From Magnetococcales bacterium (GTDB lineage: Bacteria > Pseudomonadota > Magnetococcia > Magnetococcales > JADFYX01), in the NCBI GenBank assembly GCA_002753565.1, contig PEAM01000002.1:138783-202782 (forward strand): a stretch of DNA of 64,000 nucleotides. Reading direction: 5' to 3'. This document shows, piece by piece, positions 9,980-48,290 of the stretch (positions within the stretch are counted from its first letter, which is position 1; the number at the start of each line of letters is the position of its first letter). The notes under the pieces were generated by a model that made no database searches, was not told the origin of the DNA, and worked only from the letters and a program-made list of their open reading frames with translations. A program made the translations under genes and the position numbers.

Positions 9980-9991
9980 AGACAGCCAATT

Positions 9992-12709: not shown

Positions 12710-12797
12710 GGCTGATAGGGGTTAAGCTGTGATTCAGCCTTGATGGGAATGTTAGAGTGCTTCCATTTGTTAAACACTTTTTTTCAGGAGAAAATCC

Positions 12798-13280: not shown

Positions 13281-13434
13281 TGCATTCAATCCAACAAGCA
13301 GCATGGTGTTGTACAATGGAGGACCATGGCAGTGTGGAGATTATGATCAACTGGTGTGGTCTGACTGTTTTTACCCTCTTGCCAACCGGGTAGGGAGGGT
13401 TTCAGGGTGTGGTATTAGCTGGTAGAAATGAGCT

Positions 13435-14538: not shown

Positions 14539-14636
14539 GCCTCTACCCTATGGTCATTCTGCCCCACCCCCTATCCATAAAGTTGGCAGAAACCGATCTG
14601 AGAGGGGTGTGTGTGGCTAAGGAAACCGTTAGATAG

Positions 14637-15518
14637 ATGAACGGTTATCAAAAAGAGCAGGTTGAGAGTGGCGGCAGACCTGCCCTCTCTGATCGTGATT
14701 TTCACAAACTAAGCCGGGCGTTTCAAAAACGGTTTGCCCTTTTGATCTCTCCTGACGAAAAACAGTTACTCACCGACTGTCTCACCAACCGGGCCAGACA
14801 ACTGGGCATGCGCTCTCAGCTAAAATATCTGGATCACCTCTTTGACCCGGCCTTTTCCAATGAGGAGTTTGTCTATCTTCTCGATACCCTGACCGGCAAT
14901 CGAACCAACTTTTTCCGCCATCCAGAACATTTCGAATTTCTCGCCCAGACAGCCCTGCCGGAGCTGATTAAACAGCACGGTGCGGGAGTCAGTCGTAATC
15001 TGGTTGTCTGGAGTGCCGGCTGTACCTCTGGAGAGGAGCCATACTCTCTGGCCATGGTGCTTAAACAGTTTTCTGAACACTATCCCGGCATCAACTTCAT
15101 GTTCCAGATTTTGGCTACCGATGTCTCTTTTCGTATTTTGGAGAAGGCTGGTCGGGCTATCTATGATATGGATCAGGTCAAACCCATTCCGGTCTCCATG
15201 AAGAAAAAATTTCTTCTTAAAAGCAAAGACCGTTTTAAACTGCAGGTACGGGTCATTTCCGAACTACGCAAACAGGTTGTTTTCAGGCAGCTGGATTTTT
15301 TGGACCCTCGTTTTGGACTAAGGGAGAAGATGGATATCATCTTTTGCCGTCATGTCATCTGTTATTTTGATCGTCAGAATAAAGAGCGTTTGATTGGTAA
15401 GCTGTGTCAGTATCTTACACCGGGTGGCTATATCTTTTTAGGAGAGACAGAGTCTCTTCGACAGCTTAGTGTCCCCTTGGTTCAGGTGGCCCCTGCCGTC
15501 TACCGCCTCCCCTCCTAA
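14637..15518 (+). CDS. cheR: Chemotaxis methyltransferase CheR
   Basis: 293 aa with 'TNFFRHPEHFEFL' and the SAM-binding motif 'VWSAGCTSGEEPYSLAM'. Confidence 0.9.
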   Translation: MNGYQKEQVESGGRPALSDRDFHKLSRAFQKRFALLISPDEKQLLTDCLTNRARQLGMRSQLKYLDHLFDPAFSNEEFVYLLDTLTGNRTNFFRHPEHFEFLAQTALPELIKQHGAGVSRNLVVWSAGCTSGEEPYSLAMVLKQFSEHYPGINFMFQILATDVSFRILEKAGRAIYDMDQVKPIPVSMKKKFLLKSKDRFKLQVRVISELRKQVVFRQLDFLDPRFGLREKMDIIFCRHVICYFDRQNKERLIGKLCQYLTPGGYIFLGETESLRQLSVPLVQVAPAVYRLPS

Positions 15519-21008: not shown

Positions 21009-22589
21009 ATGGTCGGAGACCAGGGTAGAAAATATTCATCGATCGAGGGGGGAGAGAAAATCTTGAGTGACAATAAAATCCAGACATTGAAGGAGATCAG
21101 GGAGACCGCCGCGCGGCTTCGTGCCGCAGGGGACCGGATCGCCCACTGTCATGGAACCTTCGATCTGCTCCATCCCGGCCATCTCCGCCACCTGAAGCGG
21201 GCCAGCGAGGAGGGCGATCGTCTGATCGTTACCCTGACGGCGGACCGGTTTGTCTCCAAAGGACCGGGACGCCCCGCCTTTCCCGAACAGCTTCGGGCGG
21301 AGAGTATCGCTGCCTTGGCGTGTGTCGATTATGTCTGCATCATTGCAGAGACCACCGGCATTCCCGCAATCGAAGCCATCCGCCCGGCGGTTTATGTCAA
21401 GGGGAGTGACTACAAACAGGCCAGCCAGGATGTGACCGGCAATATTCTTCGGGAAAAAAAAGCCGTCGAGTCCTTTGGTGGCAAGATCGCCTATACCGAC
21501 GAGATAACCTTTAGCTCCAGCAGTCTGCTCAATCAACATTTCGATCTTTTCTCCCCAACCGTCAAAGAGTATCTGCGCAAATTCAAATTGGTGCACACCC
21601 CGGAGGCGGTAACCGAGCAGATTCAGAACCTCAAAGATTTGCGGGTACTGGTGGTGGGTGAGGCGATTATCGATGAATATTGTTCTGTCAAGCCCATGGG
21701 GGTAACGGGAAAGAATATCGATGTTCTGTCGTCACAATATGACTCCCTGGAGCGGTTTGCCGGTGGCTCACTGGCGGTAGCCAACCATCTGGCCGGCTAT
21801 GTGGAGGAGGTCGCCCTGGTGACCGGGTTGGGGAAAAATGATCCGCACGAACCCTTTATCCGCGCCAAACTGGCTGACAACATCCAGCCGACCTTTTTCT
21901 ACTATGAAGATGCGCCGACCCTGGTCAAGCGTCGGTTTGTCGATGAGAGCATCAGCAAGCTTTTCGAGATCTATTTCTATGATCCCGCCCCACTGACGGC
22001 CGATCTGGAACAGGAGATCTGCCGGTGGATTGAGACCCATGCCGCCAACTATGATGCGGTGATCGTTCCCGACTACGGTAACGGTTTTATCTCGGAGCCC
22101 ATGGTGGAGCGGCTCTGTCGCCATGCGGGATTTTTGGCGGTCAATACTCAGATCAACAGCGGAAACCGGGGCTATCATGTCATTACCCGCTACGCTCGGG
22201 CTGACTATATCTCCCTGAATATTCCAGAAATCCGTCTGGCGGCCCACAACCGCCACGCCCCTCTGGAAGATCTGGTCATAGAGATTGGCAAACAGCTTGA
22301 TGCCTCCTCTTTTTCTGCCACGTTGGGGGCGGATGGGGCGATGATGATGGATGTGGAGAAGGGGCTTTCCCTCTCCATTCCCGCTCTTTCAACCACGGTG
22401 GTAGACCGTATCGGGGCTGGGGACAGCTATTTTGCCCTGACCAGTCTCTGCCTGGCCCAGGGGGGAGACCGGGAGATGGCGCTCTTTTTGGGGAGTGCGG
22501 CAGCGGCGTTGGATGTGCGTATTGTCTGCAACAGAGAGCCGGTTGATCCGGTTTCCCTGCATAAATTTACCTCCACCCTCTTAAAATGA
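21009..22589 (+). CDS. Bifunctional nucleotidyltransferase (N-terminal) / PfkB-family sugar kinase (C-terminal), HldE-like with reversed domain order
   Basis: 526 aa. The N-terminus has 'HCHGTFDLLHPGHLRHLKRA' (cytidylyltransferase-like HxGH). The C-terminus has 'VLVVGEAIIDEY' and 'DRIGAGDSYFA' (PfkB/ribokinase signatures). Confidence 0.8.
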   Translation: MVGDQGRKYSSIEGGEKILSDNKIQTLKEIRETAARLRAAGDRIAHCHGTFDLLHPGHLRHLKRASEEGDRLIVTLTADRFVSKGPGRPAFPEQLRAESIAALACVDYVCIIAETTGIPAIEAIRPAVYVKGSDYKQASQDVTGNILREKKAVESFGGKIAYTDEITFSSSSLLNQHFDLFSPTVKEYLRKFKLVHTPEAVTEQIQNLKDLRVLVVGEAIIDEYCSVKPMGVTGKNIDVLSSQYDSLERFAGGSLAVANHLAGYVEEVALVTGLGKNDPHEPFIRAKLADNIQPTFFYYEDAPTLVKRRFVDESISKLFEIYFYDPAPLTADLEQEICRWIETHAANYDAVIVPDYGNGFISEPMVERLCRHAGFLAVNTQINSGNRGYHVITRYARADYISLNIPEIRLAAHNRHAPLEDLVIEIGKQLDASSFSATLGADGAMMMDVEKGLSLSIPALSTTVVDRIGAGDSYFALTSLCLAQGGDREMALFLGSAAAALDVRIVCNREPVDPVSLHKFTSTLLK

Positions 22590-23452
22590 GCAGACTCGGG
22601 CAAGGAGCTGTTCTCTTCATGGGGCTGTTTTTTGCCCTGTTTGCAGGTGGCGTATTTCATCCTGCCCAGGGCGAAACTCTGGCAGATCTGACCGGTCTGG
22701 CCATCATGCAGAGTGTCTCTGATCGGCAGTTTCGTCCCTTCGAGTTTGAACAGTTGACCATTACCCGAACCCGTGGCGACGGAACCCAGGTTGTGCGAAA
22801 GGGGCGTCGCTACACCCGCTTGGAGAAGGGGGAGGGGGGGGTTAGTCGCTATTTGCTGGTCTTTGACCAGCCGGAAGCCATTAAAGGGGTTGCCTTTCTT
22901 ATTCGGCATCTGCCCGGTGGTATCCAGGGCCATTGGGTCTATCTGCCGGCTTTGGGGCAGCGGATGCACCGTGTCTTTGGTGATGGGGGTGGGGGAATAT
23001 TTGATACCGATTTTAGTGTGGAAGATTTAGCCAACGAGGATTATTCCCGCTTTGTCTATCAACGTCTGGCCGATGCCATGCACAAAAAGCGGCCTCATTT
23101 TGTCATTGAGGCCCGCTCGGCCAAAAGTAAGGGGCGGTGGCCTTCCCATTATGGTTCACGGCGGATCTTTATTGATCGGGAGCACTATCGAATCACCCGT
23201 ATCGACTATTATGATCGCAGTGGGGTGTTGTTGAAAAGGCGAACCAACCGCAGCGGAGGCACAAAGGATGCGGGTATTGGTTGGCGACCTGAGACCATTC
23301 GCATGGAGAATCTGCAAGACAAAACAAAAACCACCCTTCAAACCACCCGACGTCTCTATTCTGAGGAGTGGGTGCCAGAGCACTATTTTTCCCGAGATAA
23401 GATTGTCAAAGGGGTATTGATGGAAAAAAAGCAGGTCAAACACCCTCAGTAG
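22586..23452 (+). CDS. LolA-like outer-membrane lipoprotein-sorting family protein (periplasmic)
   Basis: 288 aa with a signal-like N-terminus 'AVLFMGLFFALFAGG'. 'YLLVFDQPEAIKGVAFL...WVYLPALGQ..RV' resembles the LolA-like family often found next to MMPL/RND exporters. Its ATG overlaps the upstream stop (ATGA 22586-22589). Confidence 0.65.
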   Translation: MSRLGQGAVLFMGLFFALFAGGVFHPAQGETLADLTGLAIMQSVSDRQFRPFEFEQLTITRTRGDGTQVVRKGRRYTRLEKGEGGVSRYLLVFDQPEAIKGVAFLIRHLPGGIQGHWVYLPALGQRMHRVFGDGGGGIFDTDFSVEDLANEDYSRFVYQRLADAMHKKRPHFVIEARSAKSKGRWPSHYGSRRIFIDREHYRITRIDYYDRSGVLLKRRTNRSGGTKDAGIGWRPETIRMENLQDKTKTTLQTTRRLYSEEWVPEHYFSRDKIVKGVLMEKKQVKHPQ

Positions 23453-23460
23453 AGGGGGGG

Positions 23461-26241
23461 CTAATGGCCCTTTTTGTGGGGCTTCTCCGGCTTGGACTCC
23501 ACGGTTTTTCTCGCCAGGACATCCGCGAGCCGATTACCCAGCACCCGGCTGATGTTCAGGTTGAGTTTAGCCGCAATCTGGGGAAAAAATTTCATCCCCT
23601 GTTGCAGTTGGTCAAAGTCGAAGACCAGAATTTCTACCGGTTCCAGTGCTTGAATGTTGGCGACCCGTCGGGTGGCACGGATAAAGCCGATTTCGCCGAA
23701 AATCTGACCGGGCGTCAGCACGGCCACCCGATGCATGCCCCCTTCTCCCTCTTTTTGGATCAGCACCTCTACCGAGCCGGATAGAATCAGGCCCAGACTT
23801 TTGCCCACCGCCCCCTGGCGCATGAGAATATCACCGGTATTAAATAGCTTCAGCTCGGAGATCAGAATGGTTTTTTTCACTTCGAACAGAGACATGCCAT
23901 GAAAAAGAGGACTCTTTTCCACCACATCTCCACGGACCTTCAACGCCAGAATCTGAGCAAAACCGATCAGACGAACCCGACGCATGATGATGGGGGTGAT
24001 GAGCAGGTCGGCAATCACCGCAAAAAAGAGGGTGGCGGCTGAGAGCTGGCCAAATTGGGCGATGATGGTAAAATTGGAGTAGCTGAGAACCAAAAACCCC
24101 AACATCAGAGAGAGGCTGGTGGAGATCACCGGAATGGCCTCATCCCGAATGGTTTGCCGTACGGCCTGCTCTCGATTGGAGGTGTTGCGGCACTCTTCCA
24201 TATAGCGGGAGAGCAGATGGATGGTGTCATCCACAGCGATGCCGATGGCGATGACCGCCACCATGGCTGTCCCTGGGTTGATGGGCAGATCCAGCAGCCC
24301 CATGATACCAAAAACCAGGATAATGGGAATGAGATTGGGAACCAGAGAGATGAATCCACCCTTCAAAGAGGTGAATAGCAGCGACATGAGAATAAAAATC
24401 ACCACCAACAGCAGCCCCAGAGACTGAATCTGGGCTGCGATCAGATCATCAGCCGCTGCATTGATCATCAGGTTTTCTCCCAGCACCGAGGCAGAGATAC
24501 CGGCACCTGCCATGAGCTGAGCCGCTTTTTTCAACGCACCAACCAGAAGATTGAGCTCGTGGGAGTCGTTGATATTGTGCCGGACGACAATATTAGCGGA
24601 AGAAAAGTCGGCACTTACCAGGGAGGAGATCTCTTTGCGGGAGAGGAACAGGAGGTATTGCTCAACCAGGTTTTGTGAATCCGGCACCTTGAACTGGCTG
24701 GCATGCCCCTTGTGAAACGCCTGATTCATCAAAGAGAGCAGGTCGGCCAGAGAGAGGCTGGAGTCGTGTTGATCCTGCTGGTCGAGCCATGCCTGGATTT
24801 TGGAGAGGCGAAGCAGATTCTCCGGGTTTTTGAAGGTATCGGCAGAGTCACTTTTCAGGTGGATGAAAAAGGTCTTTACCCCGGCAAAATCTTCATGAAT
24901 TTTTTCGGTGTGGATGATCAGGGGCTGATCTTCATGAAAATAGGAGAGGGGGTCGTTGGTGACGTGAAGAGTGGTGGCGTGGTGGAGAAAAAACAGCACC
25001 AGCCCGGCGGTGATGATCAGGGTGATCCGGCCATGACGGTGGATGATGCGGTCGAAAAGTCGGATGACCAACCCGGCCACCCCAAAAATCTGACCGTTTT
25101 TTCCCATCATCTTGGAGCGGGTCGGTCCAAAAACCGACAGTATCATGGGGGTCAGCAACAGAGTAACCACCCCATTGAAGGTGATGGCCAGGGCAGCCGC
25201 CAGGGCAAAATCACGGATCATTTCAATTTCGCTGAGCATATTACTGAAAAAACCCAACCCCGTGGTTGTCAGGGTCAGGAGAAGTGGTAGCCCGATGCGG
25301 CGGAGCATGCTGCGGACAGCCTGCAGACGGTTTTTCTTCTTCTGTTCGGTGACCTCTCCCAGGTAAGAGGAGAGCATGTGGGTATCCTCTGTCGCCCCGA
25401 TAACCAGCACCAAAGAGGGGATCATGGCGGTGAGAACATTGATGGGTATGCCAAACCAGCCCATGGTTCCAAAGGTCCATAACAGGCTGATCAGTGAGGT
25501 GAGAACCGGTAAAAGGGCGGCAAACAGCGAGCCCATGAGAAAGGTGATGGAGAGCGCCAGAACCAAGGCGCTGATCGGGGCCAACAGAAGGAGATCATCA
25601 ATGATATTCTGTTTTAACTCTTCACTCAGGCGGGGGGAGCCGACCTGGAAAATCTCTTGGAAGCTGGACTGATGCTCTTTGATGATCCCTTCTATGGCCT
25701 GATAGGCGTTGAAGTCAAAAATTTTATTCCACTTCTGCTCTTCATAGCTGACAATCAAAGCGGCGGCCAGACCATCGTCGGAGATAATCTGCCCGGCCAA
25801 CAGGGGGTTGCGCAGGGCATTTTCCCTGGCTCTGCTAATCTCAAAAGGGTCAGTGGGGTTTTCGGAGAGCAGAGAGCCAAAAGAGAGCGCCCCTTCAGAA
25901 AAACGGATGGAACGGGCGTTGATGATGCTATCGACCTTGGTGACAAAAGAGAGTTTTTCCAGGGTCTGGTGAATCTGGGTCAGAGCCGCCAGCTTGTCCG
26001 GGTGCCAAAGTTCTGCATCCCGGAGATAGAGAATAATTTTACTGTCGGAGCCAAATTTTTCCACCACCTCCTCATAGAGGGAACGGTCCGGAGCGCTGTC
26101 TCCAGCCAGACTAGCCAGGTTGGTCTCTATACGAATATAGACGAGTCCGTAGGCGGAAACAGCGGTAATGATGGTCAATAGAATCAGGGAGACCACACGG
26201 TGCCGTGTTCCGATCAGGAGCGTTTCAATGATTCTATCCAT
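23461..26241 (-). CDS. MMPL/RND-superfamily exporter fused to C-terminal cyclic-nucleotide-binding domain
   Basis: 926 aa with two 6-TM bundles separated by large loops (MMPL/RND topology). The C-terminal ~150 aa, 'GDILMRQGAVGKSLGLILSGSVEV...GQIFGEIGFIRATRRVANIQA', is CAP/cNMP-binding-like. Confidence 0.85.
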   Translation of the reverse strand: MDRIIETLLIGTRHRVVSLILLTIITAVSAYGLVYIRIETNLASLAGDSAPDRSLYEEVVEKFGSDSKIILYLRDAELWHPDKLAALTQIHQTLEKLSFVTKVDSIINARSIRFSEGALSFGSLLSENPTDPFEISRARENALRNPLLAGQIISDDGLAAALIVSYEEQKWNKIFDFNAYQAIEGIIKEHQSSFQEIFQVGSPRLSEELKQNIIDDLLLLAPISALVLALSITFLMGSLFAALLPVLTSLISLLWTFGTMGWFGIPINVLTAMIPSLVLVIGATEDTHMLSSYLGEVTEQKKKNRLQAVRSMLRRIGLPLLLTLTTTGLGFFSNMLSEIEMIRDFALAAALAITFNGVVTLLLTPMILSVFGPTRSKMMGKNGQIFGVAGLVIRLFDRIIHRHGRITLIITAGLVLFFLHHATTLHVTNDPLSYFHEDQPLIIHTEKIHEDFAGVKTFFIHLKSDSADTFKNPENLLRLSKIQAWLDQQDQHDSSLSLADLLSLMNQAFHKGHASQFKVPDSQNLVEQYLLFLSRKEISSLVSADFSSANIVVRHNINDSHELNLLVGALKKAAQLMAGAGISASVLGENLMINAAADDLIAAQIQSLGLLLVVIFILMSLLFTSLKGGFISLVPNLIPIILVFGIMGLLDLPINPGTAMVAVIAIGIAVDDTIHLLSRYMEECRNTSNREQAVRQTIRDEAIPVISTSLSLMLGFLVLSYSNFTIIAQFGQLSAATLFFAVIADLLITPIIMRRVRLIGFAQILALKVRGDVVEKSPLFHGMSLFEVKKTILISELKLFNTGDILMRQGAVGKSLGLILSGSVEVLIQKEGEGGMHRVAVLTPGQIFGEIGFIRATRRVANIQALEPVEILVFDFDQLQQGMKFFPQIAAKLNLNISRVLGNRLADVLARKTVESKPEKPHKKGH

Positions 26242-26466: not shown

Positions 26467-27108
26467 ATGAGTATGCATGAACCAGCCAACGCCGACAGGC
26501 TTCCCCTGATGGCCTGCCATGAGTGTGATCATCTCTACCGTCTCCCCAACCTGGCAGATCGGAGTCTGGCCCGTTGCCAGCGCTGTGGTACCATCTTGGC
26601 CAGGGGCATGAAGAACAGCCTGGATAAAACCCTGGCCTACACCCTGACGGCCCTGGTCCTTTTTATGATTGCCAACACCTATCCCATTTTGGGGTTGAAG
26701 GCGGCGGGGCAGGAGCAGCACTACACCCTTTTTTCCGGGGCGTTGGTTTTGGTCCAGTATAATCTGTGGGAGGTCTCTGTAACGGTTTTCCTGACCAGTA
26801 TTCTCTTTCCTCTTCTGCATATCCTGGGGTTGCTCTATACGCTGCTCCCCCTCAGAGGGGCACGGCTTCCCCGCTATTTTATTCCGGTGTTCAAGGTGGC
26901 TCTTTCTACCCTCCCTTGGAGCATGGTCGGCGTCTACATGTTGGGCGTGTTGGTCTCCATCGTCAAGCTGGCCGATCTGGCAACGGTAGTGCCCGGTTTG
27001 GGGCTGTATGCACTGGTTGGGCTGTTATTGGCTTCGGTGGCGGCAGCGGCCTCTCTCGATCCGCTCTCTATCTGGCAGCTGGCCGACCGGCTGCGGAGAG
27101 AGCGGTGA
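26467..27108 (+). CDS. pqiA: Paraquat-inducible protein A, half-size (N-terminal-repeat equivalent)
   Basis: Zinc-ribbon 'CHECDHLY...CQRCGT' followed by 4 TM helices. I placed the start at ATG 26467; the ORF track starts at GTG 26449. Confidence 0.75.
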   Translation: MSMHEPANADRLPLMACHECDHLYRLPNLADRSLARCQRCGTILARGMKNSLDKTLAYTLTALVLFMIANTYPILGLKAAGQEQHYTLFSGALVLVQYNLWEVSVTVFLTSILFPLLHILGLLYTLLPLRGARLPRYFIPVFKVALSTLPWSMVGVYMLGVLVSIVKLADLATVVPGLGLYALVGLLLASVAAAASLDPLSIWQLADRLRRER

Positions 27109-27737
27109 GCAGGCCCACCCTGACAGCTCGCCAGGCCGGCTTGGCCTCGTGCCATACCTGCCATCTGGTGGTAAAAAAACCCCAGGGGCACGACAAGGCA
27201 CACTGCCCGCGCTGCCACAGCCCCATCCACTCCCGCAAGGTGGATAGTCTCTCTCGGACCTGGGCCTTGGTTGTGGCGGCCGTCATCCTCTACATACCGG
27301 CCAACCTCTATCCGGTGATGACAGTCAGCAAGCTGGGGAGTGGTGATCCGAGTACAATTATCAGCGGTGTCATGCACCTGATTCACTCCGGTATGTGGCC
27401 GTTGGCTCTGATTGTCTTTGTGGCCAGTATTGTTGTTCCGGTGGGAAAGCTTGCTATACTGATCTACCTGCTGCTGTCGGTTCACTATCGATCTTTTCGC
27501 AAACCCAAAGATCGTACCGTGCTGTTCCGTCTTCTAGAGCTGTTTGGCCACTGGTCCATGGTCGATGTTTTTCTGGTCTCCATCCTGGTGGCCTTGGTGG
27601 ATCTGGGTTTTTTGGCCACCATTGAACCGGGTGTGGGTGTTTTATATTTTGGGGCGGTGGTGATTACCACCCTGTTTGCATCGCGGGCTTTTGATCCGCG
27701 CCTTATTTGGGATGTAATTGATGACGACCTTGGATGA
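27105..27737 (+). CDS. pqiA: Paraquat-inducible protein A, half-size (C-terminal-repeat equivalent)
   Basis: GTG 27105 overlaps the upstream TGA (GTGA). It has 'CHTCHLV...CPRCHS' plus 4 TM helices. The longer ORF from 26766 overlaps the first half-gene out of frame. Confidence 0.75.
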   Translation: MSRPTLTARQAGLASCHTCHLVVKKPQGHDKAHCPRCHSPIHSRKVDSLSRTWALVVAAVILYIPANLYPVMTVSKLGSGDPSTIISGVMHLIHSGMWPLALIVFVASIVVPVGKLAILIYLLLSVHYRSFRKPKDRTVLFRLLELFGHWSMVDVFLVSILVALVDLGFLATIEPGVGVLYFGAVVITTLFASRAFDPRLIWDVIDDDLG

Positions 27738-29454
27738 TACCGAGCAGCAACCGGATACCTTGGACCTGGACCATTTGCCGGTGTTACCCGGCACCCCCCC
27801 GATCGAAAGCGGTGGGGGGTTCTCCTTTATCTGGTTGGTACCCATCATCGCTCTGGTGATTGGGGGGTGGTTGGTGATTAAAACCTACAACGACAAAGGG
27901 CCAGAGATCGTTGTTACCTTTAAGTCGGCTGACGGAATCGAGGCGGGCAAGACCAAAATCAAACACAAAGATGTCACCATCGGTCTGGTGAACGAGGTCA
28001 CGTTGAGTGACGATTTCTCTTCGGTCTCCCTGCAGATCAGTCTGGTTAAGGGGGTGGGTAAATATTTAACACCATCAGCTAAATTCTGGGTCGTCCGCCC
28101 CCGCCTCTCCCTTCAGGGGGTTTCCGGTCTGGGTACGTTGGTTTCCGGTGCCTACATTGAACTGGAGCCGGGCAGAAAAGGGAAGGCAAAGAAGGTGTTC
28201 CAGGGGTTGGAGACCCCACCGCTGGTCCGGGCCGACTCCAAGGGGATTCGGATTCTTCTCACCACCCCCAGCCTGGGCTCCCTGGCCATTGGTTCGCCGG
28301 TCTATTATCGGGGTATTCCGGTGGGAGAGGTGTTGGGTTATGACCTGTCGGAGCAGAAACGCAGTGTCAAAATTCATGCATTCATTCGGGCGCCCTACCA
28401 CTGGATGGTTCGGGAGAACACCCATTTTTGGTCGGTGAGCGGTGTGGATGTCTCCTTTGGTGCCGATGGTGTTCGGGTACAAACCTCGACCCTGGCCTCT
28501 ATTTTACTGGGCGGCATCGCTTTTGAAAGCCCAGAGACCTTGGAGGAGAGCCCCAATGCGGTGGATGAGTCGGTCTTCTCCCTCTATCCAGACCGGCAGT
28601 CCATTACCGAGAACAATTACAGTCAAAAAATCCCCTTTCTTCTCTATTTTTCCGGTTCGGTTCGGGGTTTGAAGGTGGGGGCACCGGTTGAGTTTCGAGG
28701 CATCAAGATTGGTGCGGTTACCGATGTTAAAATGGAGTTTGAACGGGAAAATACCAGCTTCAGGGTGGCGGTTCTGGTACAAATTGAGCCGGAGCGGGTG
28801 GCAGAGATCAACAGCAAGGGGGAGTCGTCGGGCATGGGCTCCCCTTATGAGTTGTTGGAAACCCTGGTAGAGAGGGGGCTGCGGGCGCAGCTGGAGACCG
28901 GTAGCTATCTGACCGGACAGCTTTTTGTCAATTTGACCCTCAAACCGGATACACCGGTCAAGTTGGTCGGTGGCGATAAACGGTTTCCGGAGCTACCCAC
29001 GGTACCCACCAACCTGGAGGAGATCAGCACTTTTGCCTCTAACTTTCTGGCCAAGCTGCAAAAAATCCCTCTGGAGGAGATTGGCATCCAGTTGGTCGGA
29101 ACCCTGGAGGGGGCCAACCGAACCGTCAATGCCCCGGAGATTCTCAAAACGGTTCGATCTTTGGATCAGGCGTTGGTTGCCCTGAAAAAAACCACGCTTA
29201 ACATGAATGGGGTGATCACCCCCATGGGCAAGGAGATTGAGGAGGCGGCTCAAGCGGCTGCGTTGGCACTGAATCGTAGTGAAGAGTTGATGCGGCAGAT
29301 GGAGGATGTGGTGGGACCGGACGCCCCCCTCAACTATCGAGTTACGGAGCTCTCGCAAGAGTTGACCTTGACAGCCCGTTCCATCCGCTCGTTCATCGAC
29401 AGCATGAATCGCAAACCCGAATCCCTGGTCTTTGGCAAGGGGAAGGAGAGATAG
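27721..29454 (+). CDS. pqiB: Paraquat-inducible protein B (multi-MCE-domain intermembrane transport protein)
   Basis: About 577 aa with an N-terminal TM 'FSFIWLVPIIALVIGGWLV' and repeated MCE-like modules ('GSPVYYRGIPVGEV', 'GAPVEFRGIKIGAV'). The start is ATG 27721, or TTG 27718. Confidence 0.85.
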   Translation: MTTLDDTEQQPDTLDLDHLPVLPGTPPIESGGGFSFIWLVPIIALVIGGWLVIKTYNDKGPEIVVTFKSADGIEAGKTKIKHKDVTIGLVNEVTLSDDFSSVSLQISLVKGVGKYLTPSAKFWVVRPRLSLQGVSGLGTLVSGAYIELEPGRKGKAKKVFQGLETPPLVRADSKGIRILLTTPSLGSLAIGSPVYYRGIPVGEVLGYDLSEQKRSVKIHAFIRAPYHWMVRENTHFWSVSGVDVSFGADGVRVQTSTLASILLGGIAFESPETLEESPNAVDESVFSLYPDRQSITENNYSQKIPFLLYFSGSVRGLKVGAPVEFRGIKIGAVTDVKMEFERENTSFRVAVLVQIEPERVAEINSKGESSGMGSPYELLETLVERGLRAQLETGSYLTGQLFVNLTLKPDTPVKLVGGDKRFPELPTVPTNLEEISTFASNFLAKLQKIPLEEIGIQLVGTLEGANRTVNAPEILKTVRSLDQALVALKKTTLNMNGVITPMGKEIEEAAQAAALALNRSEELMRQMEDVVGPDAPLNYRVTELSQELTLTARSIRSFIDSMNRKPESLVFGKGKER

Positions 29455-29457
29455 ATC

Positions 29458-30084
29458 ATGAAATGGCACGGGATGGTGGTAGGTCTGATTGGGGCGTTGT
29501 TACTGTTAAGCGGCTGTGCGCGTATGATGGGGGAGGGGACACCGGCAACCCGATTTTATATCATCTCTCCTTTGACGATTCCAACCTCTTCCCCTGGGGT
29601 TCAGGTTCGGGAGCCTGAGCTTAGCCTGGCTCTGGAGCCGTTACTGATCCCCTCTTATCTCAATCGACCTCAAATTGTGATTCGAACCGGACAGAATGAG
29701 CTGAAAATTTCGGAGTTCAATCAGTGGGGAGAGAACCTGAGAGAGAATTTATCCCGCGTATTGATTGAAAACCTCTCTTTTCTGCTCGACTCGGACCGCA
29801 TCTACCTGATGCCAGGATTAAAACGGGAGTTGCCGGACTATCGAATTTTGGTTCGAATCATCGAGTTTGAACGGGGTGACGATGGCAAAATCCGTTTGGC
29901 TGCTCGTTGGAAACTCCAGAATAAAAGTGGCAAAGAGATTCTCTTTCGGGAAAACCTGCTGCTAACCGGTCAAAAGGTGAAGGGAGGGGACTATTCTGCC
30001 ATTGCTCAGGCGATGAGCCATCTGTTGGGGGAGCTGTCCCAACGGATTGCCGAGGTGGTCCAAAAACCGGAGGCTTTCTTATAA
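29458..30084 (+). CDS. pqiC: PqiC-like lipoprotein (ABC-type transport auxiliary component family)
   Basis: 208 aa with lipobox 'LLLSGCA', starting 3 nt after the pqiB stop with GGAGAG upstream. Confidence 0.75.
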   Translation: MKWHGMVVGLIGALLLLSGCARMMGEGTPATRFYIISPLTIPTSSPGVQVREPELSLALEPLLIPSYLNRPQIVIRTGQNELKISEFNQWGENLRENLSRVLIENLSFLLDSDRIYLMPGLKRELPDYRILVRIIEFERGDDGKIRLAARWKLQNKSGKEILFRENLLLTGQKVKGGDYSAIAQAMSHLLGELSQRIAEVVQKPEAFL

Positions 30085-30213: not shown

Positions 30214-31857
30214 GTGTTGCGGCACATGATGAATGGTGGAACGACAATGAACCAAGATCCCTTCTCTTTTGAAGATGAACCGTCTCAAAATCCTAAATTG
30301 GCTGATGATCCAATGGAAACGTTGGTGGCGGAGGTTGAAGAGGAGACTTTCTATCTTCCAACCAAGCCCACGGCAGACAGGTTGAGTGATCACAGGGGCG
30401 GATCGGTCGATGAGCGGCGCTCTGTATGGGGTCGACTTGTTCAGACACGGCGACCCATATGGGAGATGTTTGTCACCATTCCTGTGGCGGTCTTGGCCGG
30501 TTATCACCTGAAATCTCTTTCGATACCCTCCATGGAAGAGCTGTTTTCCACACCGACTGCGCCGACCATCCAGATTGAGACGGTACAACCGAGAATGGTG
30601 GTGGCCCCCGCTGTTCCCAGCCAGGAAAGAGCCATTGCAACAACGGCTTCTGCTCAAACCACCCTGTTGGAGGTCAAAGAGACTTCACCCCAAGGGGTCA
30701 CGGTTCCGACGCTGCCTGTAGAGAGTGTTACCTCTGCTGTTTCTGTTGCACCCGTTGTACCTGTTACACCTGTTGCGGCTCTTCCCGAGAAGAAACCGGC
30801 CAAACTCATTGCCGAGGAGATGGCTGAATTGGCTCGAGTGGCCATGGAAAAAAAGAGTCGTAACAGTGAACAGTTTGCAGAGAGCATGGTGGTTCCAGCT
30901 CCGCATAGAAAACTGGAGATTGGGGCCTATCTGGTCTCGGATCAGCAGGTGGCTTCCATTGTTATTCCTTTGCCGCGCAAAAGAGGTGAGATGGTTGTTC
31001 CAGCACCCCTTTCACGTTTGCTGGGCCGTTTGGCTGAGAAAGAGGCTCCTCTGCAGGGAGGTGAACATCAAGCTGTTGCGGCTCCGGCCCCCATTAAAAA
31101 GCGTGTGACCCATGCCATGGAGGCTCCTCCACGCAAGCGGGGAGAGATGGCGACTAACTTGGATCCAGTCAAAAAATTGTCCCAAAGCGGCGTTCAGTCA
31201 GATCACTCGCAATTAAGAGGGTTTGTGCTTTTTTTGGGGTCGTATCGGCAGGCTAAATCCAGCTATCTGAAGGCTATCAGCGAAAATCTGAAACAGGAGG
31301 CGGTCAATCTGATTCAGCAGACCATCCAGTTTGAAGATGAGTCGTATACTCGGCTCTACATCGGCCCCTTTGCCAGCCGGGAGGAGGCGATTGTAGCCAA
31401 AAAAGCGCTGTTTGACTCCCAAAAAATTAAAAGCTCTGTTACCTATCTGCAGCCAGGTACCAGCCAATTTTCTCAGGTTAAACCCATTGGATCTCCCATC
31501 CAGTTTGCTCAGGTATCAACACCCAGAAAGAGCCTGCATGCGCCACAGTCCCAAAAATATGTGGTCCATTTAGGCTCCTATCAAAATGTGGGGGTGGACT
31601 CCTCTGGCAACCTGCTGAAAAAAATTACTGAGCTGGGAGGTGTCGGGTTTCAAAAGGGGACACAAATCAAGGGCACCACTTACTGGCGGGTCTATAGCGG
31701 CCCATATTACACCATCACTCAGGCCACAGAGGCGAAGAACAACCTGAAGAGACGTTTGAATCTATCCAATGCCACCTTAATGACGGAAGGGGATAAAGAG
31801 GGCTGGATCAAGGTGGAAGGGTATAGCCAATTAAAACCAAATTTGGACAACGGTTAA
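30214..31857 (+). CDS. SPOR-domain (peptidoglycan-binding) protein with two C-terminal SPOR repeats
   Basis: 547 aa with two SPOR-like modules ('FVLFLGSYRQ...YTRLYIGPFASREEA' and 'YVVHLGSYQN...YWRVYSGPYYTITQA'). The start is uncertain; ATG 30247 has GGTGGA upstream. The last ~11 codons lie inside repeat copy B. Confidence 0.75.
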   Translation: MLRHMMNGGTTMNQDPFSFEDEPSQNPKLADDPMETLVAEVEEETFYLPTKPTADRLSDHRGGSVDERRSVWGRLVQTRRPIWEMFVTIPVAVLAGYHLKSLSIPSMEELFSTPTAPTIQIETVQPRMVVAPAVPSQERAIATTASAQTTLLEVKETSPQGVTVPTLPVESVTSAVSVAPVVPVTPVAALPEKKPAKLIAEEMAELARVAMEKKSRNSEQFAESMVVPAPHRKLEIGAYLVSDQQVASIVIPLPRKRGEMVVPAPLSRLLGRLAEKEAPLQGGEHQAVAAPAPIKKRVTHAMEAPPRKRGEMATNLDPVKKLSQSGVQSDHSQLRGFVLFLGSYRQAKSSYLKAISENLKQEAVNLIQQTIQFEDESYTRLYIGPFASREEAIVAKKALFDSQKIKSSVTYLQPGTSQFSQVKPIGSPIQFAQVSTPRKSLHAPQSQKYVVHLGSYQNVGVDSSGNLLKKITELGGVGFQKGTQIKGTTYWRVYSGPYYTITQATEAKNNLKRRLNLSNATLMTEGDKEGWIKVEGYSQLKPNLDNG

Positions 31858-32045: not shown

Positions 32046-33359
32046 CTAGGCCGATGACTCTACCGCTTGGAGCGCCGCCTCAATACCGTCCCAGGCTCGG
32101 TGAAGGTCCGCCTCGCTGATGCAGTATGGGGGGAGAAGATAGAGAACATTGCCCAGGGGGCGGATCAATAGCCCCCGTTCGATAAAAAAAGCTTTGAGAA
32201 AAGGGGCCATTTTCGAGCCATAGCCCGCATCGGCCGTGACAAAATCCAGAGCAGCAATCACCCCGGTAATCCGAGGTTTTTCCAGGGAGGTGCGTGGAAG
32301 AATAGCGGCCATCCGTTGCTGATGGATGGTTTCGATTTGGGCGACCTTCTCCAGACTTTTTTCCTGCTCAAATAGAGAGAGAGAGGCCAGAGCCGCCGCA
32401 CAGCTTAACGAGTTGGCGGTAAAGGAGTGACCATGGGCAAAGGCCCGGTCGAAGGATTCCCCCAAAAAAGCCTCATAGATCGACTCTCGACAGACGGTAA
32501 CCGATAGAGGCATAAAGCCGCCGGTCAACCCCTTGGACAAGCAAATAATATCGGGTGTCACACCGGCCTTTTCACTGGCAAACAGGGTGCCGACCCGACC
32601 AAAGCCGGTCATTACCTCATCAAAAATCAGCAGTACACCCGCCGCCTTGACCCGTTTGGCAACCGCTTGGATAAACTCAGGACGACACATCCGCATACCC
32701 GAGGCACCCTGAACCAGGGGTTCAAGAAGCAGGCCGGCACAGCGGTGCCCCTGGGTTTCAAGGTAGCTATCCAGTGCCGCCAGAGAGTCAGCCTCCCGAG
32801 CCTCAACCGTCTGGTCTCCCATCCAGGTTTGAGGGTAGGGGAGGGTATCCACAGCAAAAAGCAGCGGTTTGAATGGCTCAAAAAAACCGGTCGTTGCCCC
32901 CATGGACATGGCCCCAACGGTATCGCCATGATAGCCGCCGTCAAAAGCCAGAAACTGATCTCTCTGCTCCCCGCGGTTGAGATAATATTGACGTGCCATC
33001 TTCAGGGAAACCTCCACCGCTGTGGAGCCGTTATCCGAGAAAAATACCCGTGTCAAACCAGCCGGTAGTTTTTCTGCCAACGCTGTGGCCAGATGTACAG
33101 CGGGTTCATGGGTAAAACCGGCAAAAATCACCTGCTCCAACTTTTTGGCCTGCTGAGCGATGGCCTCGGCAATAACCGGATGGGCGTGTCCATGGGTGGT
33201 CAACCACCAGGAGGAGATCAGGTCCAGATAGCTCTTGCCGTCCGCCCCATGCAGGGTGGCCCCCGAGGCGGAGAGGATGGGAATGGGGTCGGGGGCTGTA
33301 GCCTCCTGAGTAAAGGGGTGCCAGACATGGCGGCGGTCTTGAAGAATCAGATTATTCAT
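32046..33359 (-). CDS. bioA: Adenosylmethionine-8-amino-7-oxononanoate aminotransferase
   Basis: 437 aa class-III aminotransferase with 'DEVMTGFGRVGTLFA' and the PLP Lys in 'CLSKGLTGG', located in the bio cluster. Confidence 0.9.
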   Translation of the reverse strand: MNNLILQDRRHVWHPFTQEATAPDPIPILSASGATLHGADGKSYLDLISSWWLTTHGHAHPVIAEAIAQQAKKLEQVIFAGFTHEPAVHLATALAEKLPAGLTRVFFSDNGSTAVEVSLKMARQYYLNRGEQRDQFLAFDGGYHGDTVGAMSMGATTGFFEPFKPLLFAVDTLPYPQTWMGDQTVEAREADSLAALDSYLETQGHRCAGLLLEPLVQGASGMRMCRPEFIQAVAKRVKAAGVLLIFDEVMTGFGRVGTLFASEKAGVTPDIICLSKGLTGGFMPLSVTVCRESIYEAFLGESFDRAFAHGHSFTANSLSCAAALASLSLFEQEKSLEKVAQIETIHQQRMAAILPRTSLEKPRITGVIAALDFVTADAGYGSKMAPFLKAFFIERGLLIRPLGNVLYLLPPYCISEADLHRAWDGIEAALQAVESSA

Positions 33360-33405
33360 GAATTTCTATCGTGTTATTTTAAAAGCTCAATCCATTAAAG
33401 TGGCT

Positions 33406-35784
33406 CTATCGGGTGGATTGAGTCATATAGAGTTCATCCAGCAATTTGAAAAGCTCCACACGGACAGATTCCAGAGCCAGGTAGAGTTTTTGTGCTTCGT
33501 CACGTTGTCCAACCTTGCTGGCATCCAACACCATGGCACCCTGGTCATGAACCTGAGAGTGAACCCGGCCTATCTCTTGGAAGAGTGGAAGATGGCCCAG
33601 CTGTTGAGTCCCTTCATTATCGTACCATTGACCAAATTTGCAGTCGTGACCGGTACGGATCTCGTCGATGGAGAGGGTGCTGCTACGTCCCAAGGCCATC
33701 TGACCCAGGTTGCCAAGCCAGACAAGGTGGTGATGCTTGACGGTATAGATATCCAGAGGAAGCTGACCAATATCCAGCTCCTTGACCGCATCTTGAAGAT
33801 CGTTGCTGGCCCCGTCTACGACGTTGTTCATGCGTACCGTATGGCTGATCATACCATCGACCAAGGTGTTGAGATCGTAAATTTTCAACGCATTTTTCTG
33901 GACATCGGCCGAAGAGCTGAAAATTCCCTCACCCAACCCCTTGATCTGCTGTGTCATGTCGCTGACCGCATTGACCTCCAGGGTAATGGTGTCCGACTCG
34001 GCTGCGGCCCGTTGAGAGGATTCGGCAATGGCAGCGGTGTTGGCGGCGGCCTGCTGAGCATTGCGAGAGACCTCCTGAGCCGCCATGCCCATGTCATGGA
34101 CATTTCGGGTCACGGCCTGGGCCGCCTGCTCGACATCATTCATGGAGTTGGCGATGCTCTCTACCGATTCGCTCTGTTCGGTCACAGCCAGGGTGATATT
34201 CTGGTTGGACTGGTCGATTTGGGTGAAGGCTTTGGTTACCCGCTGGGTTGTCTCATTGGCTGCTTTGGTGTTGTCTTGGATCATCTCCACCATTTTAGAG
34301 ATCTCCAGGGTGGCGCTGACCGTCTGTCGAGCCAGATCCTTGACCTCATCAGCCACCACCGCAAACCCTTTGCCAGCCTCCCCGGCCCCGGCAGCCTCAA
34401 TGGCAGCGTTCAAGGATAGCATGTTGGTCTGTTCGGCAATGTTGCTGATGATATCCACCACATGACCAATCTCCTGGGCCGACTGGGCCAGGGTTGCCAT
34501 AATGGATTGGTTCTCCTCGACCAGATTGCTGGCCTTGCTGGTGGTATGGCTGGCAGATTGACAGAGATCTCGAACCGAATTAAGCGAGTTGGTCACCCCC
34601 TGAATAGAGGCGGTGACCGTATTGACCGAGTTGCTGACCAGTCCCAGACTCTCATCCACCCCACCAATGTTGGCGGTCATCTCCTCGGCGGCTGAGGCCA
34701 TGGTCAAGACGTTCTGGCTGACACTTTCGGCTTCAGTGGCGATGGTCTGAATCTCTGCAGCAAGCTGTCCGACCCGACCGTTGACCACCAGAACATTATC
34801 GGCAGCATCATCGACGCTGTTTTTCAGGTTGGTTGTCTCTTGGTCGATTTGATCGTTATCTTTGACCATTTGAATGATCATGGCCCGAATTTCTGCCGCA
34901 TCGGCCTCCAGCACCGCACCAGAGGTGGTCATGGCTCGGACCACCGCCTGGGTGGTCTGGGCTTGCAGTTGAATGGCTCGGGTACTGTTGGCCAGACTGT
35001 CGGCCATACGGTTGACCAGGGCGCTGATTTCGTTGATCTCGTCTCTTTTTTCAGGAATCTCGATCCGCTGGGTCAGATTGCCCTGGGTCATGCTGTTGAT
35101 CATGAGAGAAATCTCTTTGAGGGGGCTGATAATGGTTCGACCCAGAATGAAGAAGGCCCCCAGAGCGACAATAAGGGTCACAATGGCTGTCTCCACTCCC
35201 AGGCTTCTGGCTCCTTCCCAAAACAGTCGGTTGACATCATCCAGATAGATTCCCGAACCGATAACCCAACCCCATGGCTCAAACCCTTTAACAAAAGAGA
35301 TTTTGGCTACCGGTTTGTCGAAGCCGGGCTTGGGCCAGAGGTAGTCCACAAAGCCGGAGCCCTGCCGCTTGACAATTTGGGTAAAATCATAAAAGAGCCG
35401 TTTCCCCCCTTTATCCTTAAATTGGGAGAGATCTTTACCGTTGAGTTTGGGCTTGATGGGATGCATCACCATCACGGCATCCATGTCGTTGATCCAAAAA
35501 TAGTCGTTCTCTTCGTAGCGAAGAGATTGGATGATGGCTTTGGCCTGCTCTTGGGATTGGGCTCGGGAGAGGGTGCCGTTCTGCTCCAGAGTGTAGAAAT
35601 GGCTTAGAACGCTGTGGGCGGTCTCCACCACATTGCGGGTTTTGATTTTGCGGTCGCTGAGTAGCTCCCCCTCCCGGCTGCTGATGGTGATGATGCCGCT
35701 GATGACCATACCCAACAGTGCAAACAGGATGATCAGATGAATCCGGCCCCGAACACTCAAAAACGAACTTAAACCATTCACCAT
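33406..35784 (-). CDS. Methyl-accepting chemotaxis protein: sCache-type sensor, HAMP, MCP signalling domain, C-terminal CZB zinc-binding domain
   Basis: 792 aa. The sensor has '[15 protein letters not shown]...[11 protein letters not shown]' (single-Cache type). The signalling tip is '[40 protein letters not shown]'. The CZB pattern is 'HLVW...CKFGQW...HSQVH'. Confidence 0.9.
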
Positions 35785-35950
35785 GATAGTGGCCCTTATA
35801 CTGGGTCTGGCAATGGCTGGAATCGCCTTGACCCTTTGGGTGGGAGAGAGGGAGGTATCAGCTATTAGGGTTGCGTCTTGATTTAAATCTCCACAAATTT
35901 ATAGCATATTTCAATCAATTATGGACAAAAAAAAACAGGTGAATAGCACT

Positions 35951-37173: not shown

Positions 37174-37194
37174 GATCCCTCCATCACCCTGTGC

Positions 37195-38208: not shown

Positions 38209-38222
38209 GGGTAGGTATCCAA

Positions 38223-44337: not shown

Positions 44338-44416
<79 letters not shown>

Positions 44417-44452
44417 TTTCCAACATCGCCGAATGGCTGATGACTTCGGCTT

Positions 44453-44529
44453 GCGCTCGTAGCTCAACAGGATAGAGCAACGGCCTTCTAAGCCGTAGGT
44501 TACAGGTTCGATTCCTGTCGAGCGCACCA
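44453..44529 (+). tRNA. tRNA-Arg (anticodon TCT)
   Basis: Hand-folded cloverleaf: acceptor GCGCTCG/CGAGCGC, anticodon loop CTTCTAA, T-arm ACAGGTTCGATTCCTGT, an encoded CCA, then a T-run. Confidence 0.9.
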
Positions 44530-48284: not shown

Positions 48285-48290
48285 AGCCTG

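Follow-up and report, generated by a model that had tools for sequence, protein, structure and literature searches.

The protein of 926 aa encoded at 23461..26241 of the window (the whole 64-kb stretch of DNA that was analysed) belongs to a large, widespread and uncharacterised family of RND transporters that carry a cyclic nucleotide-binding (CNB) domain at their C-terminus. We could identify this RND-CNB family in at least 197 species-level genomes, and clustering of its members at 50% identity gives about 120 groups. In several groups of bacteria, the gene nearly always closes a co-directional operon with the order pqiA-pqiB-pqiC-lolA-like-RND-CNB, which has been rearranged in the window. 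The explanation we favour, with moderate confidence, is a proton-driven lipid exporter that would be allosterically controlled by cAMP or cGMP and would pass its substrate to the LolA-like carrier as part of a Pqi-linked pathway.

The movement of lipids between the membranes of Gram-negative bacteria, its powering and its regulation are only partly understood. For PqiABC, we know of neither an energy source nor a regulator. A widespread family of lipid-type RND pumps with their own cyclic nucleotide sensor would represent direct post-translational control of envelope transport by a second messenger. If this is confirmed, gating by CNB domains, so far known from ion channels and from one eukaryotic solute carrier, would also apply to RND transporters of bacteria. 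Concrete targets for cloning are the five-gene operon and the CNB domain by itself.

Domain organization of the RND-CNB protein

The first-pass annotation of this DNA had assigned the protein the 12-TM layout of MMPL/RND exporters with two large loops, followed by a C-terminal CNB domain. Pfam and an AlphaFold2 model (pLDDT 85.1, pTM 0.82) bear this out, with the following parts:

23461..26241, minus strand: RND (MMPL/HAE3-like) transporter with C-terminal CNB domain, 926 aa, ATG start
Residues ~15-35: TM1
Residues ~36-201: periplasmic domain 1
Residues 202-371: TM2-6
Residues 404-422: TM7
Residues 423-588: periplasmic domain 2
Residues 589-753: TM8-12
Residues 754-784: conserved linker
Residues 785-915: CNB domain
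Residues 917-926: disordered tail
23494..23979, minus strand: region coding for the linker and CNB domain (residues ~755-916), with the PF00027 match, the SthK match and the invariant residues

In Pfam, both domains score above threshold: MMPL (PF03176) matches in two stretches (1.5e-31, 110 bits against a cutoff of 20.5), and cNMP_binding (PF00027) covers residues 800-882 (1.8e-16, 60.3 bits against a cutoff of 27.5). The Sterol-sensing and Patched SSD families also match the protein. The model contains 12 TM helices and two periplasmic domains of about 165 aa each, located between TM1 and TM2 and between TM7 and TM8. Its top Foldseek matches are all RND proteins that handle lipids, sterols or siderophores (MmpL4/5, NPC1L1, HpnN, MmpL3). 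The best-scoring NCBIfam subfamily is HAE3 (TIGR00921) with 209.4 bits, which is under the curated cutoff of 351.9; the subfamily placement is therefore loose, and the protein is HAE3-like rather than a certified member. The Pfam and PDB matches of this protein and of the LolA-like protein described below are far beyond chance.

We aligned 77 family sequences, which are 25–81% identical to the window protein. The TM4 relay motif, G-x-T-E-D-T-H, retains E285 in 71, D286 in 64 and H288 in 66 of the 77 sequences, and in the TM10 relay motif, G-I-A-x-D-x-T-I-H, D671 and H675 are each found in 74 sequences and T673 in 73. Conservation extends into the linker (R757, L758, G760 and I764).

The C-terminal part of the model displays the CNB fold, in which an alpha-A helix is followed by an 8-stranded beta-roll with the helix of the phosphate-binding cassette (PBC) and then by alpha-B and alpha-C. 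Its best match in the PDB is the CNBD of the cAMP-gated channel SthK (4d7s, 1.3e-14), and this match includes the preceding helix. Its nearest relatives of solved structure (SthK, PKA, PKG and CNG) genuinely bind cNMP. The peptide that had been quoted for this domain, GQIFGEIGFIRATRRVANIQA, is located at residues 845-865. In the window protein the PBC reads F848-G-E850-I-G852...R859-V860-A861...A865, so that the conserved Arg is indeed present in the 'RRVA' context that had been pointed out. Across the alignment, G822, G845, G849, E850 and A861 are invariant or nearly so, R859 is found in 76 of 77 sequences, and G813 of the beta-roll in 70. The motif [FYLIVMW]-G-[ED]...R-x-A is carried by 102 of 120 homologues. 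The family consensus of the PBC is the canonical 'RTA', with T in 86 of 102 members, and residue 860 is V in the window protein. The 'RVA' variant is mainly a Magnetococcales substitution, and the exchange of the family Thr for Val may have changed or weakened ligand binding in this group.

A conserved module of five genes

The groups in which the co-directional operon prevails are Gammaproteobacteria, Desulfobacterales, Nitrospinota and Ca. Anammoxibacter. The full pqiA-B-C-lolA-RND order was found in 52 of 58 loci from several phyla. A LolA-like gene lies directly upstream of the RND-CNB gene on the same strand in 68 of 74 loci (about 71 without three threshold artefacts). In 58 of 75 loci, the stop codon of the LolA-like gene either overlaps with the start of the RND gene or directly adjoins it. 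This synteny across phyla strongly supports the earlier suggestion that the LolA-like protein is the likely partner of the transporter. The first-pass annotation had missed the divergent upstream pqiABC genes, which, judging from gene order in other genomes, belong to the same conserved module. The fixed linkage of the RND and LolA-like genes to pqiABC across phyla points to an unrecognised combined pathway.

We found no other conserved neighbour: when the ORFs within 3 kb were clustered for 80 loci, no further gene family occurred in more than 6 of them, and none of the cyclases, outer-membrane proteins or biosynthetic genes that we searched for beside the module in this range was conserved. 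All 80 loci come from MAGs or SAGs. In some close relatives (L003/L006 and L020), the RND-CNB gene has no LolA-like or pqi gene nearby, and the distant CNB-RNDs P0115 and P0118 have neither, thus the partnership is not obligatorily encoded in cis. One entry that seemed to be a family member without CNB domain (P0070) was rejected upon inspection, as the gene is cut off by a contig end.

A second-messenger-gated exporter had been called an unusual regulatory design. We found no characterised precedent for it, as literature searches on RND/MMPL with CNB, on PqiA with MMPL and on LolA-like with HAE3 returned no description of the architecture or the module. However, with at least 197 genomes in a widespread family, the architecture is not rare.

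Rearrangement of the module in the window

All five functions of the module are adjacent in the window, between 22586 and 30084, together with an HldE-like gene:

21009..22589, plus strand: HldE-like bifunctional enzyme with swapped domains (N-terminal nucleotidyltransferase, C-terminal PfkB kinase)
22586..23452, plus strand: periplasmic LolA-like protein (PF17131, TP_0789-like), 288 aa, with signal peptide and no lipobox Cys
23453..23460, no strand: stop-to-stop spacer 'aggggggg' between the convergent LolA-like and RND genes
26467..27108, plus strand: N-terminal half-gene of pqiA (first PqiA repeat), divergent from the RND gene
27105..27737, plus strand: C-terminal half-gene of pqiA (second PqiA repeat), whose GTG start overlaps the upstream stop (GTGA)
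27718..29454, plus strand: pqiB with three MCE (MlaD) domains, Pfam MlaD in 3 stretches
29458..30084, plus strand: pqiC-like gene for an outer-membrane lipoprotein (ABC_trans_aux), lipobox LLSGC

Placed between pqiABC and the LolA-like gene, the RND gene has been inverted and runs on the opposite strand to both. The window therefore has neither the co-directional order nor the translational coupling of the LolA-like and RND genes. The same rearrangement has been kept in two further loci, L086 and L087. An Rfam scan for structured RNAs returned three tRNAs only.

The PqiABC genes can be recognized by their two PqiA repeats (split over two genes), a PqiB with three MCE domains and a PqiC lipoprotein. 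PqiB matches its NCBIfam model with 1.3e-138 and 463 bits, under the equivalog cutoff of 525. For the N-terminal half of pqiA, the mechanical ORF call starts with GTG at 26449, and the likely start is the ATG at 26467. A frameshift or pseudogene was considered for pqiA and rejected, since a GTGA overlap couples the two halves and gene calls in L087 show pqiA divided in the same way.

The LolA-like protein matches LolA_like (PF17131) in Pfam with 3.8e-28 (98.8 bits against a threshold of 30) and, in a profile search of the PDB, 3BK5 (1.3e-25) and 4Z48 (1.4e-13). Its AlphaFold2 model, built with 10 homologues, is poor (pLDDT 52.7), thus the assignment of the fold rests on sequence homology. Its median score is 147 bits with the LolA-like proteins of the module and 63 bits with other PF17131 proteins, and its gene is orthologous to the LolA-like genes that precede RND-CNB in other phyla. 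Of the five Magnetococcales loci with enough flanking sequence, three have this gene immediately beside the RND gene. In the window, the HldE-like gene is ATGA-coupled to the LolA-like gene downstream; this pairing also occurs in L007, L086 and L087, with a distance of about 7 kb to the RND gene in L007. The pairing is specific to Magnetococcales, and the HldE-like gene was probably not a member of the ancestral module.

The gap between the opposing stop codons had been given as 8 nt, and the sequence of the junction, tag(23450-52)-aggggggg-cta(23461-63), shows exactly this length. The corresponding gap is 2 nt in L086 and 69 nt in L087, and the junction sequences of the three genomes differ, without any conservation. 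A terminator scan called none in the gap, and short hairpin/U-tract motifs overlap the ends of both genes. Folding of both strands gave no more than a hairpin of 5 bp that spans the LolA stop, and a 4-bp GGGC/GCCC motif with U5; these RNA folds are no more stable than those of shuffled sequence (z = -0.4 and -1.2). As the overlapping or abutting co-directional arrangement is dominant elsewhere, the convergence is derived. The cluster was reshuffled in this genome so that the pump gene now converges tail to tail on its partner gene. We regard the 8-nt junction as a probable by-product of this lineage-specific rearrangement and not as an ancestral design.

Comparison with known systems

Among lipid transporters of the RND superfamily, HpnN, the HAE3-type hopanoid transporter of Burkholderia and Rhodopseudomonas, shares with the RND-CNB protein the 12 TM helices, the two small periplasmic domains and the TM4/TM10 relay, and is a Foldseek match of the model (5khn, E = 5.8e-19). 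It moves lipid from the inner towards the outer membrane, the role that we propose for RND-CNB. However, HpnN lacks a CNB domain, a LolA-like partner and a linkage to pqi genes, and the window protein stays far under the cutoffs of the NCBIfam HpnN models (59 vs 752 bits). The closest solved folds are the mycobacterial MmpL4/5 (E ~1e-22, target-normalised TM-score 0.76-0.79 in Foldseek). MmpL3/4/5 export lipids or siderophores and hand them to periplasmic acceptors, and the combination of an RND protein with a LolA-fold carrier has a precedent in MmpL7 and the lipoprotein LppX. Nevertheless, MmpL proteins are only ~15% identical to the window protein, their partners are MmpS or AcpM and not PF17131 proteins, and their cytoplasmic C-terminal domains are not CNB domains.

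Two other systems combine RND and LolA-superfamily proteins in one cluster. In Castellaniella defragrans, AmeABCD contains an HAE3 RND protein and a periplasmic LolA-superfamily protein (DUF1329) and confers monoterpene tolerance and Nile Red efflux (PMC6394551), and the ApeL/ApeM/ApeN set for aryl-polyene export pairs an HAE3/MMPL-type RND protein with a periplasmic LolA-superfamily protein (PMC8253772). They differ in that Ame also includes a DUF1302 outer-membrane protein and a BNR-like protein, while Ape adds a LolB-like protein and lies within a biosynthetic cluster. Neither of them has a CNB domain or pqiABC. Together with TOL_3187, in which MMPL and LolA-like parts are fused (PMC6304351), they set precedents for a partnership of RND proteins with the LolA superfamily.

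The MCE-type system PqiABC, which serves intermembrane lipid transport in E. coli, is represented in the window by PqiA (split), the three-MCE PqiB and a PqiC-like protein. To our knowledge, neither an RND pump nor a LolA-like gene has been reported for canonical pqiABC operons; unlike these, the pqiABC genes of the module have both as fixed downstream partners in at least 52 loci. In the position of its CNB domain after the last TM helix, where it would gate membrane transport, the RND-CNB protein resembles SthK, MloK1, the CNG/HCN channels and SLC9C1. SLC9C1 shows that a secondary transporter may bear a CNB domain (PMC10620091). The RND-CNB protein differs from the CNB channels in that its output is an RND pump, and it has a linker of ~30 residues and no C-linker tetramerisation domain. 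No CNB-regulated RND pump was described in the literature that we searched.

Proposed mechanism and alternative explanations

We propose that RND-CNB is a secondary transporter of the inner membrane, of the lipid-handling MMPL/HAE3/SSD type within the RND superfamily, with a cytoplasmic CNB domain tied to TM12 by the short, highly conserved linker. Proton flow via the TM4/TM10 relay would pull a hydrophobic envelope lipid out of the inner membrane. The lipid would enter the two small periplasmic domains, from where the soluble LolA-like carrier in the periplasm would take it over. When cAMP or cGMP occupies the CNB domain, the linker and helices alpha-A and alpha-C are predicted to shift against the cytoplasmic face of the TM bundle and so toggle transport on or off. 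Pump and carrier would share a pathway with PqiABC, an MCE-type lipid conduit across the periplasm. In this Magnetococcales genome, the RND gene has been inverted, leaving pqiABC divergent from it and the LolA-like gene convergent and recruited behind the HldE-like gene. It is also conceivable, though improbable, that all parts form a single composite lipid machine across the envelope, in which the proton-driven RND pump loads or energises the ATPase-less PqiABC through the LolA-like adaptor and a cytoplasmic cyclic nucleotide sets the flux. If true, an MCE tunnel would be connected directly to an RND motor and to second-messenger signalling, which would offer a possible answer to how Pqi-type systems obtain their energy and are controlled.

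Several alternatives need to be considered. The CNB domain might be degenerate or re-purposed, for dimerisation or for a ligand other than cAMP or cGMP as in the CRP/FNR-family members CooA, NtcA and Clp, so that cNMP would not gate the transporter. PF00027 domains that do not bind cNMP are common in bacteria, residue 860 of the window protein is Val and not the family Thr, and no class III nucleotide cyclase was found in the 64-kb window, where the search for cyclases returned only a hemerythrin-GGDEF protein. However, Val is an isosteric replacement for Thr, and PKA and Epac accept Ala in the corresponding position. Since the G-E pair, the Arg, the Ala and the beta-roll Gly are also (near-)invariant over sequences as divergent as those of our alignment, and the nearest solved relatives bind cNMP, we consider loss of cNMP gating unlikely. 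A pump for solvents or xenobiotics would be a similarly unlikely reading. Here, the LolA-like protein would be a periplasmic assembly adaptor. In favour of such a pump are the precedent of Castellaniella AmeD and the MMPL-LolA-like fusion TOL_3187, which is induced on n-C28 alkane (PMC6304351). The module lacks the additional partners of such a pump, though, as AmeABCD-type DUF1302 or BNR/Ycf48-like genes are absent from the window cluster and not conserved at the 80 loci. Its fixed partners are instead those of PqiABC, a phospholipid-transport system, and the flanking genes are neither catabolic nor conserved.

Two further possibilities concern the arrangement in the window, and we regard both as very unlikely. 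The convergent junction could be a regulatory device, with colliding or overlapping transcripts through which the RND and LolA-like genes would be expressed in a coupled or antagonistic way. Tight convergence does persist in the clade, and the gap holds no called terminator. However, the derived nature of the convergence, the divergent junction sequences and RNA folds that match those of shuffles all argue against such a device, and the hairpin and U motifs inside the gene ends could still end transcription. The LolA-like protein, for its part, could now serve a glycolipid or LPS-precursor pathway of the HldE-like enzyme, its position beside the RND gene being a relic. The ATGA coupling and the recurrent pairing of the two genes, which in L007 are well separated from the RND gene, fit this idea. 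Against it, the window protein is still the orthologue of the LolA-like proteins of the module, and its gene still adjoins the RND gene in most of the informative Magnetococcales loci.

Domain organisation, predicted fold and conserved residues

The genes around the convergent junction are:

21009-22589, +: HldE-like bifunctional enzyme with reversed domain order (heptose-1-P adenylyltransferase-like N-terminal, PfkB kinase C-terminal), ATGA-coupled to the next gene
22586-23452, +: LolA-like/TP_0789-like protein, 288 aa (PF17131 LolA_like in Pfam, 3.8e-28)
23461-26241, -: RND-CNB, 926 codons with an ATG start
26467-27108 and 27105-27737, +: two pqiA half-genes, one PqiA repeat each, with a GTGA stop/start overlap

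The first-pass annotation had described RND-CNB as an MMPL/RND exporter with a C-terminal cyclic-nucleotide-binding (CNB) domain that faces a LolA-like gene, and the reading frames, domains and stop codons are all present where it had placed them. Pfam recovers both predicted domains, MMPL (1.5e-31, two stretches) and cNMP_binding (1.8e-16, residues 800-882), along with Sterol-sensing/Patched SSD matches and weak AcrB and SecD/F signals. The existing entry for this exact protein reads only 'MMPL family transporter [Magnetococcales bacterium]'.

The AlphaFold2 model, built with 77 homologues, is confident (pLDDT 85.1, pTM 0.82). Its twelve TM helices are interrupted by two periplasmic domains, one of ~165 residues between TM1 and TM2-6 and the other between TM7 and TM8-12. 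Two short helices then lead into a classical CNB fold: alpha-A comes first, next a beta-roll of eight strands in which the phosphate-binding cassette (PBC) helix separates strands 6 and 7, and last alpha-B and a long alpha-C helix. All Foldseek matches in the PDB were RND/SSD proteins that handle lipids, sterols or siderophores: MmpL4/5 (E ~1e-22), NPC1L1, NPC1, Patched, HpnN and MmpL3. By sequence, the C-terminal 169 residues matched best the CNB domain of the cAMP-gated K+ channel SthK (1.3e-14), in an alignment that starts in the helix ahead of the CNB domain; PKA, PKG and CNG/HCN domains ranked next. Positive charges adjoin TM1 and TM12 at both termini, which together with the standard RND topology suggests that the CNB domain is cytoplasmic.

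Conservation was assessed across 77 aligned homologues (25–81% identity to RND-CNB). The TM4 motif G282-x-T-E285-D286-T287-H288 is kept in 64–74 of them, depending on the residue, and its pseudo-symmetric counterpart in TM10, G667-I-A-x-D671-x-T673-I-H675, is similarly conserved; this is the pattern expected from a working proton relay. Hallmark CNB residues vary little or not at all (G813 in 70/77, G822, G845, G849, E850, G852, R859 in 76/77, A861 and A865). Strong conservation extends to the linker that connects TM12 with the CNB domain (R757 in 74/77, plus L758, G760 and I764), which argues for mechanical coupling over a passive tether.

The 'RRVA' sequence in the PBC, which had been pointed out as a departure from the usual context, is present, but the cassette is otherwise canonical. 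The motif [FYLIVMW]-G-[ED]-x8-R-x-A-x3-A occurs in 102 of 120 homologues; 86 of these place Thr after the PBC Arg and 10 place Val. The Val is found in every one of the eight Magnetococcales sequences and in two others, and 'RRVA' is therefore an isosteric Thr-to-Val substitution confined largely to this clade. In CNG channels, removing the Thr hydroxyl reduces cGMP affinity, so a shift towards cAMP is possible.

A conserved five-gene module

When residues 700-926 (TM11-12 plus CNB) were searched against 1.84 billion 50%-identity representatives, 123 proteins matched at E <= 1e-30, nearly all of ~900–1060 aa and matching at their C-terminus. More than 100 clusters at 90% identity combine MMPL with PF00027, and a pattern scan limited to a single genome per species identified relatives in 197. 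Hosts include Gammaproteobacteria (OM182, Pseudomonadales, Ectothiorhodospiraceae, Thiotrichaceae), Burkholderiales, Desulfobacterales, Nitrospinota, Ca. Anammoxibacter and Magnetococcales. One homologue of 1081 aa (P0103) has an FHA domain inside the RND-CNB protein itself.

Gene calls on two complete gammaproteobacterial chromosomes give the co-directional order pqiA-pqiB-pqiC-(PF17131)-RND-CNB, the last two genes overlapping by 4 nt. We searched six-frame ORFs of 80 loci, all from MAGs or SAGs, with the window proteins. Of the 74 loci whose upstream sequence extends to 1 kb or more, 68 have a LolA-like gene immediately before RND-CNB on the same strand (three of the six exceptions are threshold artefacts). 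The stop codon of this gene overlaps or adjoins the start of the RND gene in 58/75 loci, and all five genes stand in the full order in 52 of the 58 loci that reach 5 kb or more upstream. When the remaining ORFs lying up to 3 kb from the module were clustered, no additional conserved neighbour emerged, the largest family covering 6 loci; the conserved unit is thus exactly five genes in unrelated surroundings. The object of interest is accordingly larger than the gene pair emphasised in the first-pass annotation, whose interpretation is supported in part. We regard the domain, family and module assignments, taken together, as nearly certain.

The window LolA-like protein has a signal peptide without a lipobox cysteine and shows homology to a protein of solved structure, 3BK5 (1.3e-25). 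With a profile of Magnetococcales LolA-likes, module LolA-likes score a median of 147 bits versus 63 for other retrieved PF17131 proteins, which by sequence makes the window protein an orthologue of the module's. Among distant RND-CNB members, one (P0117, 27% identity; L090 6128-9718) has a PF17131 gene directly upstream and no pqiABC, and two others have neither, so the LolA-like/RND-CNB pair looks older than the pqi linkage. In a Magnetovibrionaceae locus (L004 2937-9985), a 761-aa FHA + PG_binding + LolA-like fusion directly precedes a 994-aa RND-CNB, near a stand-alone CNB protein, a metallophosphoesterase, a second FHA protein and two secretins.

Rearrangement in Magnetococcales

The Magnetococcales loci are exceptions to the standard order. 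In the window, HldE-like(+)/LolA-like(+) face RND-CNB(-), which is divergent from pqiA1-pqiA2-pqiB-pqiC(+).

Arrangement at Magnetococcales loci (RND identity; arrangement; LolA-like/RND stop-to-stop gap)
Window; 100%; full rearranged cluster; 8 nt
L086; 81%; convergent pair kept, pqi lost; 2 nt
L003/L006; 75%; RND gene alone; none
L087; 74%; window-like, flanking tkt-rhodanese-gap genes also shared; 69 nt
L007; 72%; HldE-like/LolA-like pair ~7 kb off; not adjacent

These arrangements indicate that the tail-to-tail junction is derived and stable within the lineage. The junction that had been highlighted is thus real, its gap being exactly 'aggggggg', but it represents a lineage-specific rearrangement of uncertain significance, the standard order being co-directional. 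Junction sequences differ among the compared loci, and neither significant RNA structure nor a terminator was detected at the window junction. The HldE-like/LolA-like pairing recurs in L007, L086 and L087. The split pqiA is also called in L087; other phyla have a single pqiA of ~410 aa. At the far end of the rearranged module L087 carries a second, partial MMPL gene (1-1555, +) convergent with pqiC, where the window has a SPOR-domain gene (30214-31857).

Proposed mechanism and relation to known systems

The lipid-type RND fold with its intact relay, the canonical cytoplasmic CNB domain on a conserved linker, the tightly co-encoded periplasmic LolA-fold protein and the fixed PqiABC association form the basis of our proposal. 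From these we infer that RND-CNB would be driven by the proton gradient, extracting a hydrophobic envelope lipid that it hands to the LolA-like carrier, that binding of cAMP or cGMP at the CNB domain might act as an allosteric switch of the pump, as in SthK/CNG channels and in SLC9C1, a carrier that also bears a CNB domain, and that the pathway may be functionally tied to the PqiABC conduit. We lean slightly towards this overall picture, with putative substrate, direction and ligand. A bolder reading, in which a single cNMP-controlled composite machine has the RND motor feeding or powering the ATPase-less Pqi conduit, seems improbable to us.

For the favoured pump-and-carrier picture, MmpL7/LppX is an analogous case of an RND pump handing lipid to a LolA-fold carrier. 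Other analogues are ApeL/M/N (PMC8253772) and AmeABCD (PMC6394551), both RND + LolA-type systems, and the MMPL-LolA-like fusion TOL_3187 (PMC6304351). The individual components all belong to known types, namely an RND lipid exporter, a CNB sensor, a LolA-fold carrier and an MCE system. HAE3 (TIGR00921) is the top NCBIfam family (7.7e-62), but the protein falls below its curated cutoff (209 vs 352 bits), and the partners that define the Ame and Ape systems are missing from the window cluster; RND-CNB is therefore an uncharacterised variant of these types, not unique to this genome. In the searchable literature we found no CNB-regulated RND transporter described, and no operon that combines PqiABC with an RND pump and a LolA-like protein.

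Other genes in the window

3824-5449, -: hemerythrin-GGDEF protein
7874-15518, +: chemotaxis cluster, cheA (Hpt-HATPase-CheW), dCache MCP, cheB, cheR
32046-40884 and 44803-49928: biotin-synthesis set (bioA-, bioD-, bioB-, bioC-, bioH-like, bioF-type) and ubiquinone set
33406-35784, -: further sCache/HAMP/CZB MCP
44338-44661: tRNA Pro-Arg-His cluster, between the biotin and ubiquinone sets
51915-53699, -: Ser/Thr protein kinase fused to an FGE-sulfatase (formylglycine-generating-enzyme-like) domain
54441-55505, -: double-hemerythrin protein
59235-61445, +: MCP-CZB-hemerythrin chemoreceptor

The ubiquinone set comprises ubiD, ubiE, an SCP2/ubiJ-like gene and ubiB. The three hemerythrin-domain signalling proteins suggest O2/redox or iron sensing into c-di-GMP signalling and chemotaxis.
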